Position numbers and translations under genes: made by a program
Assembly: GCA_965222215.1 (NCBI GenBank)
Contig: OZ244931.1
Coordinates: 2,648,597-2,712,596 of the forward strand
Length of the DNA stretch: 64,000 nt
From: Alphaproteobacteria bacterium
GTDB lineage: Bacteria > Pseudomonadota > Alphaproteobacteria > UBA6615
Direction: 5' to 3'
Shown: piece by piece, positions 8,784 to 39,884 of the stretch
Position numbering within the stretch: position 1 is the stretch's first letter
Layout: each line of letters begins with the position of its first letter
Notes under the pieces: model-generated
The model's input: only the letters and a program-made list of their open reading frames with translations
The model's database searches: none
What the model was told of the DNA's origin: nothing

Positions 8784-8965
8784 CCGGAGCGCCAATTTCG
8801 CCTGTGGAAATCCCCGGACTATAGGTTGGTGTTCGCAAGTGCGCGGCGCGACCCTCAGAATCTGCGGATTGCGTAAAAAATTGCACCCGGTCGCGACAAA
8901 CAAAAGCAACAAGCGCGACCGTAAGAACCGCCCGCAATGCCGGGCGTGGAACAGGGAGACCAGAA

Positions 8966-10012
8966 ATGCTGAAATCGGTTATCAGGGGCCTGGCAATCGC
9001 CAGCTTCGCCACCGTCATGGCGGCGGGCACTGCCAACGCCCAGGACAAGACGTTCTACAAGATGGGCACATTCCCGCCCGGCACGTCGGTGAACATCATC
9101 CACACCTCGTGGGCAAACGCCGTCAACAAGCACGTCCCGAACGCGGAAGTGCAGTTGTCGGCTTCCGGCCCGGCCACGCGGCACATGCTGGCCGTCGCGG
9201 CGGGCGAGATGGACTTCTCGCTGACGTCGATGGTGTCCATTGCGCTGATGGGTGCCCAAAAGGGCCCGTTCAAGAACCTGAAGAACGGCAAGGAAACGGC
9301 CAAGAAACTCCAGATCGTCTTCGCGCACCCGATCGGGGCGCGGCACTACATCGTCTATGACGATTCGCCGATCCAGAGCTTCGACGACTTCAAGGGCAAG
9401 AAGGTCTTCCTCGGCCCGCCGGGAGGCACCGCCACCCAGCAGAATCTGATCACCGTGAAGGGCATGACCGGCTATGAGCCGGGCAAGGACTTCGAGCTGG
9501 TCAAGCTGGGCTGGGGCCCGGCCATCCAGGCCTTCCAGGACCGCAAGTACGACGTGATGATGCTGCCGGGCATCGCGCCCGACCCGCGCATCCAGCAGAT
9601 CGCGCTCACCTCCAAGATCCGAGTCATCGGCGTCGACGAGGGCAAGCTCATGGCCGATGCCGGCACCAAGCGGCTAATGGCGAACCCGATGAACTCGCTC
9701 TACGCGCTCGCACCCGACGCCTATGGCGCCAACCAGACCAACACCGAAGCCGTCGATCTGGTGAACCCGAAGGTGGCCATCGCGGTACGCGCGGACATGG
9801 ACCCGGACGTGGTCTACGCCATGACCAAGGCCTACTGGGAGAACATTGAGGAAGCCCATGCGCTGGCCCCGTGGATGAAGTCCGCGGTCTCGCTGGAGCA
9901 GGCGCTGTTCCCGATCCCCAACGGCATCCACCCCGGCGCGCTGCGCTACTACAAGGAACTCGGGCTGGAGATCCCCGACGCTTTCGTCGACGGCAAGCGC
10001 ATGAAACAGTAG
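8966..10012 (+). CDS. TAXI-family TRAP transporter substrate-binding protein
   Basis: Signal peptide; DFKGKKVFLGPPGG, VYAMTKAYWEN, IHPGALRYYKELG; adjacent fused permease. Confidence 0.9.
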   Translation: MLKSVIRGLAIASFATVMAAGTANAQDKTFYKMGTFPPGTSVNIIHTSWANAVNKHVPNAEVQLSASGPATRHMLAVAAGEMDFSLTSMVSIALMGAQKGPFKNLKNGKETAKKLQIVFAHPIGARHYIVYDDSPIQSFDDFKGKKVFLGPPGGTATQQNLITVKGMTGYEPGKDFELVKLGWGPAIQAFQDRKYDVMMLPGIAPDPRIQQIALTSKIRVIGVDEGKLMADAGTKRLMANPMNSLYALAPDAYGANQTNTEAVDLVNPKVAIAVRADMDPDVVYAMTKAYWENIEEAHALAPWMKSAVSLEQALFPIPNGIHPGALRYYKELGLEIPDAFVDGKRMKQ

Positions 10013-12064: not shown

Positions 12065-12141
12065 TGGTAGGCCCGGCAGGATTCGAACCTGCGACATAAC
12101 CGTTATGAGCGGTCCGTTCTAACCAGCTGAACTACGGGCCC
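12065..12141 (-). tRNA. tRNA with CAU anticodon, most likely tRNA-Ile2 (lysidine-modified)
   Basis: GGGCCCG-TA-GTTC-AGCTGGTTA-GAAC-G-GACCG-CTCATAA-CGGTT-ATGTC-GCAGG-TTCGAAT-CCTGC-CGGGCCT-ACCA; lacks initiator hallmarks (no C1:A72, no GGG/CCC anticodon stem). Confidence 0.93.
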
Positions 12142-35184: not shown

Positions 35185-36156
35185 ATGCCCGAGACTCATC
35201 ACACCAAAGTCCTGATCCTCGGCTCGGGCGCGGCCGGCTGCACTGCGGCGGTCTACGCCGCGCGTGCCAACCTGAAGCCGATCATGGTCCACGGCATGCA
35301 GCCGGGCGGGCAGCTCACCATCACCACCGACGTCGAGAACTATCCCGGCTTCGCCGAGCCGATCCAGGGCCCCTGGCTGATGGAGCAGATGATCGAGCAG
35401 GCGAAGAATGTCGGCACCGAGATCGTCGACGACCTGATCGTCGACGTGGATTTCTCCAAACAGCCATTCATGGCGACCGGAGACTCCGGCGACATCTACA
35501 CCGGCGATACAGTGATCGTGGCGACGGGCGCGTCGGCGAAGTGGCTCGGGCTCGAGAGCGAGCAGAAATTCTCCGGCTTCGGCGTCTCAGCGTGCGCAAC
35601 CTGCGACGGCTTCTTCTATCGCGAGAAGCCCGTGGCCGTGATCGGCGGCGGCAACACGGCGGTCGAGGAAGCGCTCTACCTCACGAACTTTGCGTCCAAG
35701 GTCACGCTGATCCACCGCCGCGACGAATTGCGCGCCGAAAAGATCATGCAGGACCGTTTGTTCCGGAACGAAAAAATCGAGGTGAAGTGGGACACCGTCC
35801 TCGACGAGGTCGTGGGCACCGAAAACCCGCCGGGCGTGACCGGCGCGAAGCTCAAGAATATCAAGACAGACGAGGCGGACGATCTCGAGGTCGACGGCGT
35901 ATTCATCGCCATAGGCCACGACCCGAATACAAAGGTGTTCCGAGACGTTCTGGACATGGACGACGAGGGTTATCTGATCACCGCGCCCGACAGCACGGCG
36001 ACCAACATTCCGGGCGTGTTCGCGGCGGGTGATGTGAAAGACAAGATCTATCGGCAGGCCGTGACCGCGGCCGGCATGGGTTGCATGGCGGCGCTGGAAG
36101 CGGAAAAGTTCATCGCCGAACGCGAAGACGAAGAAACCCGCGCCGCAGCGGAATAA
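35185..36156 (+). CDS. trxB: thioredoxin-disulfide reductase
   Basis: GGQLTITTDVENYPGF, SACATCDG, GGGNTA, HRRDELR, YRQAVTAAG. Confidence 0.98.
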   Translation: MPETHHTKVLILGSGAAGCTAAVYAARANLKPIMVHGMQPGGQLTITTDVENYPGFAEPIQGPWLMEQMIEQAKNVGTEIVDDLIVDVDFSKQPFMATGDSGDIYTGDTVIVATGASAKWLGLESEQKFSGFGVSACATCDGFFYREKPVAVIGGGNTAVEEALYLTNFASKVTLIHRRDELRAEKIMQDRLFRNEKIEVKWDTVLDEVVGTENPPGVTGAKLKNIKTDEADDLEVDGVFIAIGHDPNTKVFRDVLDMDDEGYLITAPDSTATNIPGVFAAGDVKDKIYRQAVTAAGMGCMAALEAEKFIAEREDEETRAAAE

Positions 36157-36201: not shown

Positions 36202-37101
36202 ATGGCCATGGACTGGGACAAGCTCAGGATTTTTCACGCTGTCGCGGAAGCGGGCAGTTTCACCCACGCGGGTGAAACGCTGCACCTCAGCCAATCGGCC
36301 GTCAGCCGCCAGATCAGCTCGCTGGAAGACAGCCTGGGAGTCCGGCTGTTCCACCGGCATGCGCGCGGTCTGATTCTCACCGAACAGGGTGAACTCCTCT
36401 ACCGCACGGTCCACGATGTGTTCGCGAAGCTGACCATGGTCGAGGCCCGCCTCGGCGACTCCCATGAACAGCCGCAGGGTCCGTTGAAAATCGCGACCAC
36501 TGTCGGGCTTGGCTCGCTATGGCTGACCCCGCGAATCCGCGAATTCATCGAGCTCTATCCGGATATCGAGGTCACGCTGATCACGACCGACGAGGAACTC
36601 GATGTGTCGATGCGCGAAGCCGATTGCGCGATCCGTCTAACCCCGCCGACCCAGGGCGACCTGATCCAGCGGCGGCTCACGCGTGTGCACACCCACGTCT
36701 TCGCCTCGCCCGAGTACCTCAAAAGCCACGGCATGCCTGACAAGGTGCGTGACCTCGTCAATCACCACATCATCGCTTACGACGAAGACCACGCCATGGC
36801 GGCGCCCAACCTTAACTGGCTACTGAACGCCATCCGCGATGCGACGAACGAGGAACCGCACAAGGTGCTGACCCTCAACAACCTGTACGGGGTCTTCCGC
36901 GCTGTCGAAGCCGGTGTCGGTATGGCGGGCCTGCCGGACTTCCTTGCGCGCGAGGCGCGTAATCTCGTGCGCGTGCTGCCGGAACTCGAAGGGCCGGGCA
37001 ACGACGCCTTCTTCGTTTATCCCGAGGAGTTGCGGAACTCCCAGCGGATCGAGGTTTTCCGGGATTTTCTGCTGCGCAAGGTCGCCGAGACCCGGTTCTG
37101 A
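36202..37101 (+). CDS. vtlR: LysR-family regulator VtlR/LsrB
   Basis: MDWDKLRIFHAVAEAGSFTHAG...LFHRHARGLILTEQGE; directly downstream of trxB as in other alphaproteobacteria. Confidence 0.85.
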   Translation: MAMDWDKLRIFHAVAEAGSFTHAGETLHLSQSAVSRQISSLEDSLGVRLFHRHARGLILTEQGELLYRTVHDVFAKLTMVEARLGDSHEQPQGPLKIATTVGLGSLWLTPRIREFIELYPDIEVTLITTDEELDVSMREADCAIRLTPPTQGDLIQRRLTRVHTHVFASPEYLKSHGMPDKVRDLVNHHIIAYDEDHAMAAPNLNWLLNAIRDATNEEPHKVLTLNNLYGVFRAVEAGVGMAGLPDFLAREARNLVRVLPELEGPGNDAFFVYPEELRNSQRIEVFRDFLLRKVAETRF

Positions 37102-37146
37102 CCGTCTGGTTGAAATGCGGCGATTGCGTCGGTTCGATGACATGCC

Positions 37147-37161
37147 ATGCAATTATCACAT
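37147..37161. promoter_or_regulatory. LysR-type T-N11-A box upstream of the sRNA candidate
   Basis: ATGCAATTATCACAT (ATG-N9-CAT), about 60-70 nt upstream of the inferred start. Confidence 0.5.
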
Positions 37162-37217
37162 AGCTGATTAACGCTTTAGCGGACTGCACGTCGGACTTCG
37201 CAAACACTATCTATCAG

Positions 37218-37367
37218 TCATACACGGTGTTTACGTGCACCGCGCCGTCCCGGGCACCCTCCCATGCCCTGGACGGGTAGAGGCCGCCGAACACGGCCTC
37301 GGCGTCTCCCAAGACGCAAGCCTCCCTGTTCACCTGCCGGACCCCTCTCGGGTCCGGCTTTTATTTT
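37218..37367 (+). ncRNA. candidate trans-acting sRNA (AbcR-like position, anti-SD CU-rich loops)
   Basis: Five hairpins at 37225-42, 37245-76 (loop CCCTCCCA), 37280-300, 37302-17 (TCTCCCA) and terminator 37336-58 followed by TTTTATTTT; single-stranded CCTCCCTG; no credible CDS; 5' end approximate. Confidence 0.75.
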
Positions 37368-37397
37368 GGGGAATGAGTCGGAACGCCCGCAGGGTAC

Positions 37398-37424
37398 AAA
37401 AAAGGGCGGGTCGAAACCCGCCCT
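37398..37424 (-). terminator. intrinsic terminator of msrP
   Basis: Minus strand AGGGCGGGT-TTCG-ACCCGCCCT-TTTTT. Confidence 0.8.
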
Positions 37425-37449
37425 GCTTGATGTTCTCTTACACAAACGC

Positions 37450-38433
37450 CTACCGGAAGTAGACCTCCCCTGCATCTGCCGGGTACATGCCGGCCACGAA
37501 TTCCGCATAGCCGTTATACAGCTTTGTCGGCACCCGTTCGCTCTGTGAGCCGCCCAGCAGCCACTCGCTGGCCTGGCTCCAGCGGGGATGGGGAACCTCC
37601 GGGTTCACATTCGCCCAGAAACCGTACTCGGCCGGCTGAAGGCCTTCCCAGAACGTCTTGGGCTTCTCGTCCGTGAACGTGAACTGGATGATCGACTTGA
37701 TCGACTTGAAACCGTATTTCCACGGCGCGGCGAGGCGCAGCGGCGCGCCGTTCTGCTTCGGCATCGGTTTGCCGTAGAGGCCCGTCGCGATGAAGGCGAG
37801 TTCGTTGTTCGCCTCTTCCATGGTCAGGCCCTCGGTGTAAGGCCACGGGTACCAGAACTGGCGCAGGCCCGGCATCTCGGACTTGCTCTCCGCAATGGTC
37901 GCCATCTTGACGTACTTAGCGCCTGACATGGGCTTCGCCAACTTCACAAGTTCGCTCATCTGGAACCCGGACCACGGCACGGTCATCGCCCAGGCCTCGA
38001 CGCAGCGATGGCGGTAGACGCGTTCCTCAAGCTGCACATGCTTGAGCAGGTCGTCGAAGCCGATTTCGAACTCCTTCTCGACCATGCCGTCGATCTTGAT
38101 GTTCCAGGGCCGTATCTCGAGCTTCTGCGCGGCCTTGGATATCTGCTTGTGAGAACCGAACTCGTAGAAGTTGTTATAGGTGGTCGCCTCAACCTCTTCG
38201 GTCAGCGCGCGATCGACCGTGTAACGCTCGTTGCGCGGCACCGGATAGAGCCTCGCCGAGGGGTCGTCGTCGGTGGCCGCCATCGCCATCCCGGCCGGCA
38301 GGACACTTGCCGTGGCCGCGATCGCGGGCGCGATGCCGAGGGCCTTGACGATCTCCCGCCGGCGCAGAAAAACATCCTCCGGCGTGACGGCACTCTCAGG
38401 CAATTCCCAGCCACGTTTGACCTTCACCAGCAT
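37450..38433 (-). CDS. msrP: protein-methionine-sulfoxide reductase catalytic subunit (Mo, Tat-exported)
   Basis: TPEDVFLRRREIVK Tat leader, TYNNFYEFG, RHRCVEAW, QNGAPLRL, PWKYGFKSIK, YGFWANVNPEVPHPRWSQ. Confidence 0.95.
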   Translation of the reverse strand: MLVKVKRGWELPESAVTPEDVFLRRREIVKALGIAPAIAATASVLPAGMAMAATDDDPSARLYPVPRNERYTVDRALTEEVEATTYNNFYEFGSHKQISKAAQKLEIRPWNIKIDGMVEKEFEIGFDDLLKHVQLEERVYRHRCVEAWAMTVPWSGFQMSELVKLAKPMSGAKYVKMATIAESKSEMPGLRQFWYPWPYTEGLTMEEANNELAFIATGLYGKPMPKQNGAPLRLAAPWKYGFKSIKSIIQFTFTDEKPKTFWEGLQPAEYGFWANVNPEVPHPRWSQASEWLLGGSQSERVPTKLYNGYAEFVAGMYPADAGEVYFR

Positions 38434-38557
38434 GCTGACCTCCGTTCGTCGATGCGTGCCCCATAGGGTGGGCACGCGCGCGCGCGAACACAAGTCACAG
38501 CTCGTTGAAACTATTGCGACGGAATAGTTTTTTGCCTGCGGTGTTGTACGAACGCGG

Positions 38558-39769
38558 TCAGGTGGTCTGCGGCGTCAGCAGACGTTCCACCGGCTCGTCG
38601 CGGATGGGCCAGTGCAGCGCCGCCGCCAAAAGCCCCAACAGGATCGACGTGTACCAGACCGCGTTGTAGTCACCGGTCACGTCGAAATTCAGCCCGCCGA
38701 GCCACGACCCGAGGAACGCGCCGATCTGGTGACTGAAGAACACCACACCGAACAACATGCCCAGATGCCGCGCGCCGAAGATCTGCGCGACGACGCCGCT
38801 GGTCAGCGGCACCGTCGACAGCCACAACAGGCCGAAGACCCCGGAGAAGATGTAGATCGTCAGCTCGGTCTTCGGCATCAACATCAGCCACGCGATCAAC
38901 GCCGCGCGGGCGAGATAAATGAGGCTTAGCAGGTTTTTCTGGCGAAACCGGTTGCTGAGAACGCCCGCCATGTAGGTGCCGAGGATATTTCCGCCGCCGA
39001 TAGCGAATAGCGCCCAGCCGCCAACCGTGGCGGCCAGCCCGCACCAGGCGACAAACCCGGGCAAGTGAGTCCCGATAAAAGTGACGTGGAAGCCGCACAC
39101 GAAGAACCCGGCAACAAGAAGCAGATAGCCCCGGTTATGCCGGGCTTCCCGCAGTGCCTGGATCCAGTTCTGCGGGGCGACTCCGGCCTCGTCCTCGGAT
39201 TTTCCGCGGATCAGCGTGCCCAGCGGGATCATCAAGGCGACGACGACAGCCGTCGCAAGCAGCGAGAAATGCCATCCATAGTCGCCAATGACGACCTGGG
39301 TCACCTTGGGCAGCAGGAACGGGCCGAGCGCGCCGATCGTGCTGACGATGGCCATGGCATAGGTGCGCCGCTCCGGCACGACCATGCGCGCCACCGCGCC
39401 GTAGACGACAGACATACCCACGCCGCTCATGCCGATCCCGATCAGGACGCCCCCGCTGACAAGCAGTTCCGTCGGCGTCACCGCACTCGCCATCCCGAGA
39501 ACGCCGAGCGTGTAACATATCGCCCCGCCCATGATGACCTTGCCGGACCCGTAACGGTCCGCCAGCCCGCCGATGAAAGGCTGGGTCGCACCCCAGACCA
39601 GATTCTGGATCGCCATGGCGAGTCCGAACAGCTCGCGGCTCCAGCCCAGGTCGACAGTCATGGGCACGAGGAAGAACCCGAAGCCCTGTCGCACGCCGAG
39701 CACGACAGCGAGCAATGCGGCGCCCGCGCCCATCACAACGATCTGTTTGCGGCTAAGAACCTGTCCCAT
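38558..39769 (-). CDS. MFS transporter
   Basis: About 12 TM; GGLADRYG motif A; GFFVCGFH. Confidence 0.92.
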   Translation of the reverse strand: MGQVLSRKQIVVMGAGAALLAVVLGVRQGFGFFLVPMTVDLGWSRELFGLAMAIQNLVWGATQPFIGGLADRYGSGKVIMGGAICYTLGVLGMASAVTPTELLVSGGVLIGIGMSGVGMSVVYGAVARMVVPERRTYAMAIVSTIGALGPFLLPKVTQVVIGDYGWHFSLLATAVVVALMIPLGTLIRGKSEDEAGVAPQNWIQALREARHNRGYLLLVAGFFVCGFHVTFIGTHLPGFVAWCGLAATVGGWALFAIGGGNILGTYMAGVLSNRFRQKNLLSLIYLARAALIAWLMLMPKTELTIYIFSGVFGLLWLSTVPLTSGVVAQIFGARHLGMLFGVVFFSHQIGAFLGSWLGGLNFDVTGDYNAVWYTSILLGLLAAALHWPIRDEPVERLLTPQTT

Positions 39770-39884
39770 GGAAACCCCTTCGGCTGCGGTTCGCGGAGTA
39801 TGCGCGCCCCATACCGGTTTGGGTAGCACAGGCGACATCAATCGCGGCAGAATTGACCGCCGCCACTACCAGAATGGAAGTATC

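Follow-up and report, generated by a model that had tools for sequence, protein, structure and literature searches.

Two families of alphaproteobacterial small RNA (sRNA), AbcR and SorX, are described as repressors of transporter mRNAs (PMC9438474, PMC8844928). Control of AbcR by the LysR-type regulator LsrB/VtlR is described only for Rhizobiales in the papers found, and matters there for symbiosis and virulence. SorX, so far treated as a Rhodobacter-type RNA of different origin, is reported as an Hfq-dependent repressor of the transporter mRNA potA in Rhodobacter sphaeroides, cut from the 3' untranslated region (3' UTR) of the mRNA of the OmpR-type regulator gene RSP_0847 (PMC9438474). The locus compared with these systems here is a putative sRNA gene of ~148 nt at 37220-37367 (+) in a 64,000-nt stretch of an alphaproteobacterial genome (contig OZ244931.1, lineage UBA6615); this whole stretch is referred to as the window.

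The gene lies in a gap of 348 bp between a LysR gene (stop at 37101) and the convergent msrP gene (stop codon starting at 37450). A first-pass annotation, made from the sequence of the window, had described this gap and had placed an sRNA directly downstream of vtlR/lsrB; the coordinates bear out the gap, and the LysR gene, on the same strand and with trxB upstream, is an lsrB ortholog. The stretch 37220-37367 (+) is probably an independent gene, whose transcription LsrB would activate and whose RNA, of the Hfq type, would act in trans by masking ribosome-binding sites. Judged by its sequence, the RNA would be a long variant, with five stem-loops and three motifs, of a widespread LsrB-linked, SorX-like family, and by analogy it can be regarded as a counterpart of rhizobial AbcR1 in function and position outside Rhizobiales. 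The regulator, the operator and the parts of the RNA are as follows.

36202..37101, + strand: LsrB/VtlR-type LysR regulator, 299 aa (predicted; generic LysR in NCBIfam, match to PDB 9HH1)
37148-37162, no strand: LysR-type transcriptional regulator (LTTR) dyad ATGC-N7-ACAT, ATGCAATTATCACAT, a T-N11-A dyad
37159-37171, no strand: LsrB-box-like stretch ACAT-N3-TG-N3-A, overlapping the LTTR dyad (combined 37148..37171)
37207..37212, + strand: -10-like hexamer CTATCT, at a fixed offset from the GCAT half-site
37220..37367, + strand: putative sRNA gene, ~148 nt (164.4 bits with the covariance model R1, below; covariation; conserved in relatives; 5' end predicted, 3' end in the U-tract)
37225..37242, + strand: hairpin 1, CGGUGU / GCACCG (MFE folds; 0 of 6 pairs change on both sides in 15 relatives)
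37245..37276, + strand: hairpin 2 (9 of 11 pairs change on both sides)
37280..37300, + strand: hairpin 3 (4 of 7 pairs change on both sides)
37302..37317, + strand: hairpin 4, GCGUCU / AGACGC (2 of 6 pairs change on both sides)
37318..37335, + strand: single-stranded linker AAGCCUCCCUGUUCACCU, with anti-Shine-Dalgarno (anti-SD) motif 3; the most conserved part, common to SorX
37336..37367, + strand: Rho-independent terminator, a 9-bp stem at 37336-37358 and then TTTTATTTT, the U-tract (2 of 9 pairs change on both sides)

The regulator and the folded RNA

The best solved relative of the LysR protein is PDB entry 9HH1 (E 1.4e-100, 339.8 bits, residues 1-295), the cryo-EM structure of Agrobacterium tumefaciens LsrB (PMC11975290); the next PDB entry scores 120 bits. 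The protein is 52% identical to the LysR whose gene precedes two canonical AbcR genes in tandem, both recognised by the Rfam model ar15. Its gene follows trxB directly, 45 bp after the trxB end, an order that is retained in relatives and described as conserved in the class (PMC7486931). On the strength of the 9HH1 match, the 52% identity and the trxB neighbour, the protein is assigned as an LsrB/VtlR ortholog. Its closest named relatives belong to Rhodospirillales-type taxa (59-65% identity), and it is 52-59% identical to the LysR proteins encoded beside AbcR-model matches in a Hyphomicrobiales-order sample.

The minimum free energy (MFE) fold of 37200-37370(+) consists of four consecutive hairpins, an 18-nt open stretch and the terminator, so that fold and terminator scan agree with the four hairpins and the strong, U-tailed terminator read from the sequence at first pass. 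Its energy of -77.3 kcal/mol (z = -5.65) is matched by 0 of 200 shuffles. The opposite strand is nearly as stable (z = -4.74), and fold energy alone therefore leaves the strand undecided; the plus strand was assigned because the U-tract and G-U pairs are retained in relatives, the latter recurring at several positions and being compatible with the plus strand only.

Covariation across relatives supports the fold. For the 15 closest sequences, aligned with MAFFT, pairs were counted at the positions given by the MFE structure of the window, a procedure that favours the window's own structure somewhat: 89.8% of 569 pairing cells hold a pair, and sliding the 3' partners by 1-3 columns lowers this share to 32.6-45.0%. 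Of 39 pairs, 17 change on both sides, a number reached by 0 of 500 shuffles; despite the bias, the distance from the controls is wide. Folded individually, the 15 sequences mostly adopt the same architecture. On all 22 aligned relatives, a MAFFT/RNAalifold consensus yielded hairpins 3 and 4 and the terminator but no other helix; hairpins 1-2 of the two subgroups are out of register in that alignment, and pairs were therefore counted in the 15-sequence subgroup. Hairpin 1 reads CGAUG/CAUCG in the second subgroup (n = 7) and CGGUG/CACCG in the first. The sequence data describe a structured and conserved non-coding gene on the plus strand. Three other identities were rejected. The open reading frames (ORFs) 37235-37462 and 37264-37548 lack a conserved start, and the indels of relatives are not multiples of three, which speaks against a small protein; a leader or riboswitch is ruled out by the lack of a co-directional gene downstream, and a repeat element by the single copy of the stretch in its 3.9-Mb genome.

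Four recurrent CU-rich motifs had been listed at first pass, and three of them are conserved in relatives and exposed in the predicted fold. Motif 1, CCCTCCCA (37257-37264; CCCUCCCA in the RNA), forms the loop of hairpin 2, with an unpaired probability of 1.0 in the window RNA and a mean of 0.94 in the 21 of 22 relatives where the pattern matched. Motif 2, TCTCCCA (37305-37311), lies in and around the loop of hairpin 4, a region that is nearly invariant as ACGUCUCCCAGACGU in distant taxa. Motif 3, CCTCCCTG (37321-37328), lies in the single-stranded linker, which has a mean unpaired probability of 0.64 (0.42 over all positions) and whose CCUCC and GUU columns are invariant in the 22 relatives. 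The fourth, CCCTCTC (37343-37349), is merely the loop of the terminator and is not conserved.

Distribution, operator and promoter

BLAST with 37130-37375 finds matches in 27 of 61 related genomes, the window's own included; all 10 genomes of the genus have one, as do 24 of the 36 of the family. Four weak BLAST rows (L027-L030; L-numbers are labels of fetched loci) were set aside as chance matches. Of the 26 real loci, 25 have a LysR gene directly upstream and the other is cut by a contig end; a convergent msrP follows in 23. L024 and L026 have the sRNA without msrP. The msrP of another locus (L017:1600-2315) falls into at least five separate tblastn pieces and is probably a broken gene.

Across an alignment of 22 relatives, the conserved blocks run from the dyad ATGC-N7-GCAT, followed by N3-CTG-(G/A)TTAACG (block 1), through CTAT(C/T)T (block 2), the hairpins (block 3) and CCCUCCC in the loop of hairpin 2 (block 4), to (A/G)CGUCUCCCAAGACG(U/C), then AAGCCUCCCUGUUCA and then the terminator (blocks 5-7). 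One further relative, L015, was left out for an insertion in its terminator region. In that locus, extra G+C-rich hairpins (~1700-1800) follow the conserved single-stranded seed and precede the last U-tract.

A covariance model built from 15 close sequences (R1; matches counted at E <= 1e-5) extends the distribution. The LysR protein served as the query to collect 78 loci of other taxa from named public genomes, and 48 of these have a full-length match downstream of LysR on the same strand. The positive taxa include Thalassospira, Azospirillum, Kiloniella, Phaeospirillum, Nitrospirillum, Niveispirillum, Novispirillum, Minwuia, Tagaea and Stellaceae; the Acetobacteraceae loci and the loci of Hyphomicrobiales-labelled metagenome-assembled genomes among the 78 gave no matches. 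R1 also matches 60 of 151 genomes sampled at one per alphaproteobacterial family, that is, it finds the RNA in about 40% of sampled families. By these counts, LysR plus sRNA is, as a predicted unit, widespread in Alphaproteobacteria, far wider than the Rhizobiales literature describes.

Tandem copies of the sRNA downstream of LysR occur at L036 (2973-3122 and 3355-3490), L050 (2170-2292 and 3325-3494) and L091 (2509-2671 and 3079-3217), and L102 has three; several copies carry their own ATGC-N7-GCAT dyad, an arrangement reminiscent of abcR1/abcR2. At L036, L046, L051, L053 and L083, hundreds of bases, with other genes among them, separate LysR from the sRNA and its box. The window's own genome also holds three weak R1 matches, at C1:1775328-1775457 (-) with 24.0 bits, 2246301-2246444 (-) with 21.5 bits and 99783-99916 (+) with 20.3 bits; no Rfam family reaches threshold there, and these could be other anti-SD-type sRNAs or chance matches.

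The operator resembles that of the AbcR genes. The LysR-type box noticed in the gap at first pass is there, a T-N11-A dyad that is conserved in relatives. The published LsrB/VtlR box reads GCAT-N3-TG-N3-T (PMC8844928, PMC7486931) and is placed at -61 to -49 in the S. meliloti abcR1 promoter (PMC8844928). Including the dyad, the window has ATGC-N7-ACAT-AGC-TG-ATT-A, the window's RNA family has ATGC-N7-GCAT-ATC-TG-GTT-A, and a canonical abcR1 promoter, from a genome with trxB, lsrB, abcR1 and abcR2, has ATGC-N7-GCAT-AAC-TG-GCA-T; the published box is matched at 5 of 7 specified bases in the window and at 6 of 7 in relatives. Measured from the GCAT half-site, the -10-like hexamer stands at an offset of 49 nt in 14 of the 15 close rows, the remaining row carrying TTATCT there, outside the search pattern; in the second subgroup all 7 rows have 48 nt. 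The offset is also 48 nt at both canonical abcR1/abcR2 promoters (L113), so that the box is placed as in canonical abcR promoters (48-49 against 48 nt). With GCAT set at its published position of -61, the hexamer falls at -12 to -7, and transcription would therefore start at about 37220.

The strict dyad lies upstream of 51 of 80 R1 matches (100-330 nt before the terminator end), and a looser dyad, TGC-N7-GCA, upstream of 66 of 80. Since the fetched loci hold 81 strict dyads in 526,178 bases, ~0.3 would be expected by chance in 80 upstream segments.

Several observations weigh against an independent, LsrB-activated gene. The right half-site is ACAT in the window and GCAT in 14 of 14 other close relatives, which may mean weaker regulator binding in the window's strain, and the final T of the published box is replaced by A in the window and its relatives. 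The start site is placed by spacing alone. A sigma-70 consensus scan finds neither a sigma-70 site nor a good -35 upstream of the sRNA, as is expected for an activator-dependent promoter with a poor -35. The regulator itself departs from its model. The redox cysteines of LsrB are C144 and C273, of which C273 is reported as functionally critical (PMC11975290). The window protein has a single cysteine, C142, aligned with C144, and a valine at the position of C273 (A. tumefaciens numbering); the signal sensed may therefore differ from that of LsrB, and the proposed C144-C273 disulfide switch cannot work as described.

Some of the same observations would fit an sRNA without a promoter of its own, released by processing from the 3' UTR of the lsrB mRNA as SorX is from the RSP_0847 mRNA. 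The consensus scan offers no promoter before the sRNA, no terminator-like site separates the LysR stop (37101) from it, so that read-through and processing are possible, and SorX, the closest Rfam family, is described as 3'-UTR-derived (PMC9438474). Such an origin is nonetheless unlikely: in front of the sRNA, the LTTR dyad and the -10-like hexamer are both conserved and keep a fixed distance, the experimentally LsrB-dependent abcR1 promoter has the same geometry (PMC8844928), and both the displaced loci and the tandem copies with their own boxes point to a separate transcription unit. An own promoter and 3' UTR processing could also operate together.

Relation to AbcR, mmgR and SorX

The likeness of the predicted LsrB-activated gene to AbcR1/AbcR2 begins with the cassette, in which trxB, lsrB and the sRNA stand on the same strand, and extends to the dyad ATGC-N7-GCAT-N3-TG 48-49 nt before the -10, to tandem duplicates in some genomes, and to anti-SD motifs displayed in a hairpin loop and a single-stranded stretch, as described for AbcR (PMC8844928). 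The 5' hairpin loop with an anti-SD motif, an AbcR trait, is present, in the second hairpin of the window RNA rather than the first. The differences lie in the RNA itself. The window RNA has ~148 nt and five stem-loops including the terminator; AbcR is shorter (112 ar15 model positions), and two stem-loops, SL1 and SL2, are named for it (PMC8844928).

The possibility that the sRNA is a diverged member of the AbcR family (alpha-r15, RF02345) draws on position, strand, regulator and operator, all of which are the same as for abcR1. The sequence models tell otherwise. On 37050-37500, the ar15 model has no match at E <= 10, a negative that clan filtering limits to matches above the 18.9 bits of mmgR, since mmgR and ar15 appear to share an Rfam clan. 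Its sole match in the genome, with 33.3 bits against a membership cut-off of 40, is the mmgR gene, which scores 63 bits with its own model, and this candidate was rejected as an AbcR locus. In the 151-genome sample, ar15 matches 2 genomes, neither over the cut-off and both of the mmgR type, against 60 genomes for R1; five further genomes reached through loci gave no ar15 matches. The ultraconserved single-stranded aSD2 stretch of AbcR is given as UUCCCCUC (PMC8844928), and its AbcR signature GUUCCCCUC (searched as GTTCCCCTC) is absent from 37220-37367 even with one mismatch.

Real AbcR loci were obtained by an ar15 search of the Hyphomicrobiales-order sample, which gave 16 loci. One genome among them has trxB, lsrB, abcR1 and abcR2 on one strand, the two RNAs scoring 127 and 119 bits, and aSD2, in the form AGCUGUUCCCCUCUGG, is kept in all of the Hyphomicrobiales-type RNAs of L113-L124. 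R1 does not recognise the canonical, high-scoring ar15 genes L113, L126 and L128 at E <= 10. It does give weak matches (15.0-27.0 bits) at the ar15 coordinates in 10 of the 16 loci, including L114 and L127, which are over the ar15 cut-off, and two of the 16 have the order trxB, lsrB, sRNA, msrP (L117, with an R1 match of 23.0 bits, and L115, with no R1 match). These cross-matches may reflect shared architecture rather than descent; for this reason, and because the aSD2 stretch is absent, AbcR is treated here as a positional and functional counterpart rather than as the family of the window RNA. Common descent is possible, and outright membership of the AbcR family is quite unlikely. The first-pass proposal of a longer, structurally distinct AbcR member or analogue thus stands for length, structure and the missing ar15 match, and gives way on kinship: the nearest relative is SorX, not AbcR.

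Covariance searches against Rfam at gathering thresholds place no family on the sRNA stretch, in keeping with its description as unannotated, nor do they give matches in 20 LysR loci from other taxa. In a permissive search the best row is SorX (RF02784; 21.3 bits, E 0.0085, 37295-37364), followed by mmgR (18.9 bits) and ar14 (16.7 bits). Like mmgR (alpha-r8, RF00519), the window RNA has a small hairpin, a single-stranded UUUCCUCCCUAGA and a terminator, but the score of 18.9 bits on the sRNA stretch is below the cut-off of 41, and the true mmgR is elsewhere in the genome. That gene lies at G000:C1 ~2722091-2722165 (-) (L111:1492-1566), ~9.5 kb past the end of the window.

The resemblance to SorX is closer. 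The layout of the 3' 70 nt of the window RNA is that of SorX, with a small hairpin, a single-stranded (A/G)CCUCCCUGUU...CUUG and a GGCCGG terminator; the module of hairpin, single-stranded CCUCCCUGUU and terminator is present in the window RNA by alignment with SorX and is conserved across taxa. SorX differs in its length of 75 nt (from a 116-nt precursor) against ~148 nt, and in its upstream gene, an OmpR-type regulator against LysR and an LTTR box in the window; the window RNA exceeds SorX by three hairpins on the 5' side and by one anti-SD loop, and its score of 21.3 bits is below the SorX cut-off of 46.6. Relatives do pass this cut-off, one LysR-linked (L168, 57.1 bits) and one msrP-linked (L130, 46.8 bits).

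In the 151-genome sample, the SorX model matches 42 genomes at E <= 0.001, 2 of them over the cut-off, and a comparison of both lists shows 33 of the 42 genomes to be R1 genomes as well. Twenty loci were fetched with the SorX model; the core CCUCC(C/U)(C/U)GUU is found in 15, and a LysR ortholog lies inside 10. Because most of these loci carry the core and the SorX model passes its cut-off behind LysR, the LsrB-linked RNA and SorX are concluded to share a recognisable predicted 3' module, and Rfam would annotate some members as SorX. One genome (G129) has both arrangements: a full-score SorX (L129:1501-1573 (-), 91.1 bits) behind an OmpR-type response regulator (Response_reg + Trans_reg_C), and a second match (L168:2017-2097 (-)) directly behind a LysR gene (47% identical) and with the ATGC-N7-GCAT dyad. 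This pairing suggests that SorX proper is a displaced paralog. For Rfam, the consequence is a gap, as most members fall below every family threshold and go unannotated, and a few would be labelled SorX.

A structured non-regulatory spacer, that is, terminators or insulators stacked between convergent genes with CU-rich loops by chance, would suit a G+C-rich region between convergent genes in which both strands fold well, but is very improbable given that loop and linker sequences, and not stems alone, are invariant across distant families, and that the element retains its own upstream operator, moves with LysR rather than msrP (L024, L026) and is duplicated in tandem in some genomes.

Mode of action, lineage and neighbouring genes

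For the independent, LsrB-activated gene, a mechanism can be proposed by analogy with AbcR1/2 and SorX. The neighbouring LysR would bind the ATGC-N7-(G/A)CAT dyad, centred near -65, and activate a sigma-70 promoter with a weak -35 and the -10 CTATCT. The RNA would fold into four hairpins, an open linker and the terminator, and so display three C/U-rich anti-SD motifs, in the loops of hairpins 2 and 4 and in the linker (GCCUCCCUGUU). The exposed CCUCCC motifs would pair with the ribosome-binding sites of mRNAs and block their translation, with transporter mRNAs as the likely targets and with the probable help of Hfq through linker and U-tail. A linker followed by a U-tailed terminator is the usual Hfq-binding layout, and hfq is present in the genome (111.6 bits). 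A search of public RNA runs gave none that covers 36900-37700, and four runs under the same species label, presumed to be RNA, had no reads on the stretch, a result that is neutral as to expression.

The count of predicted targets adds a further point to those that weigh against the proposed role. Ribosome-binding sites with at least 9 contiguous bases complementary to the linker number 16, against 14.4 +/- 8.5 for flank-shuffled seeds, and 65 of 200 such controls reach 16 sites. Domains were scanned in 13 of the 16 candidate target genes, 3 short low-complexity ORFs being dropped. The 13 encode four solute-binding proteins (two of the TAXI type, one phosphonate and one DctP protein), a DctM permease, PhoU and seven unrelated or unknown products. 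Because the site count is no higher than in the controls, the transporter genes among these predicted targets are only suggestive and do not speak for specificity. An earlier target scan, based on duplex energies, crude gene starts and seeds that included stem bases, was discarded, as G+C-rich artefacts dominated it. One candidate target lies in the window itself: a TAXI-type (NMT1_3) solute-binding protein gene (8966-10009 (+)) has GAACAGGGAG, a 10-nt complement of the single-stranded seed of the sRNA, at its ribosome-binding site (8949-8958).

A broader reading, held tentatively and at somewhat less than even odds, takes the pairing of lsrB with an anti-SD sRNA controlled by an ATGC-N7-GCAT operator back to an ancestor of much of the Alphaproteobacteria, with AbcR1/2 and SorX both as offshoots. 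Rhizobiales would then have kept the gene at its original locus in a diverged form, AbcR1/2; in Rhodobacteraceae a copy would have moved behind an OmpR-type gene to become SorX, and the five-stem-loop, three-motif RNA of the window would be a further elaboration. If this is true, a thiol- or redox-linked LysR controls the translation of nutrient-uptake genes through one RNA class-wide. Apart from this reading, the shared operator geometry before a SorX-like RNA next to lsrB in many alphaproteobacterial families links two separately studied RNA families to one predicted regulator, and offers a route, open to testing, by which redox state could govern the synthesis of transporters in many marine and free-living bacteria. 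No LsrB-linked sRNA outside Rhizobiales was found among the literature listings and abstracts covered, and a literature search with sequence motifs of the sRNA returned only eukaryotic primer matches among the matches listed. For the window, the gain in annotation is a predicted sRNA gene, its predicted promoter and operator, and the predicted identity of the regulator. The flanking features are these.

35185..36156, + strand: trxB, thioredoxin-disulfide reductase (TIGR01292, 411.1 bits against a cut-off of 343.45)
37403..37424, - strand (37424-37403 as read): terminator of msrP (terminator scan)
37450..38493, - strand: msrP, the convergent neighbour (NF003767, 411.5 bits against a cut-off of 207)

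The separate terminator that the first-pass annotation had assigned to msrP is thus found on the minus strand, and no msrQ follows msrP before it (37403-38493). The next gene on the strand of msrP, upstream of it, encodes a major facilitator superfamily (MFS) transporter (38558-39841; NCBIfam). A tRNA gene at 12068-12141 (-), with 68.6 bits, is the sole Rfam match of the window at gathering threshold.

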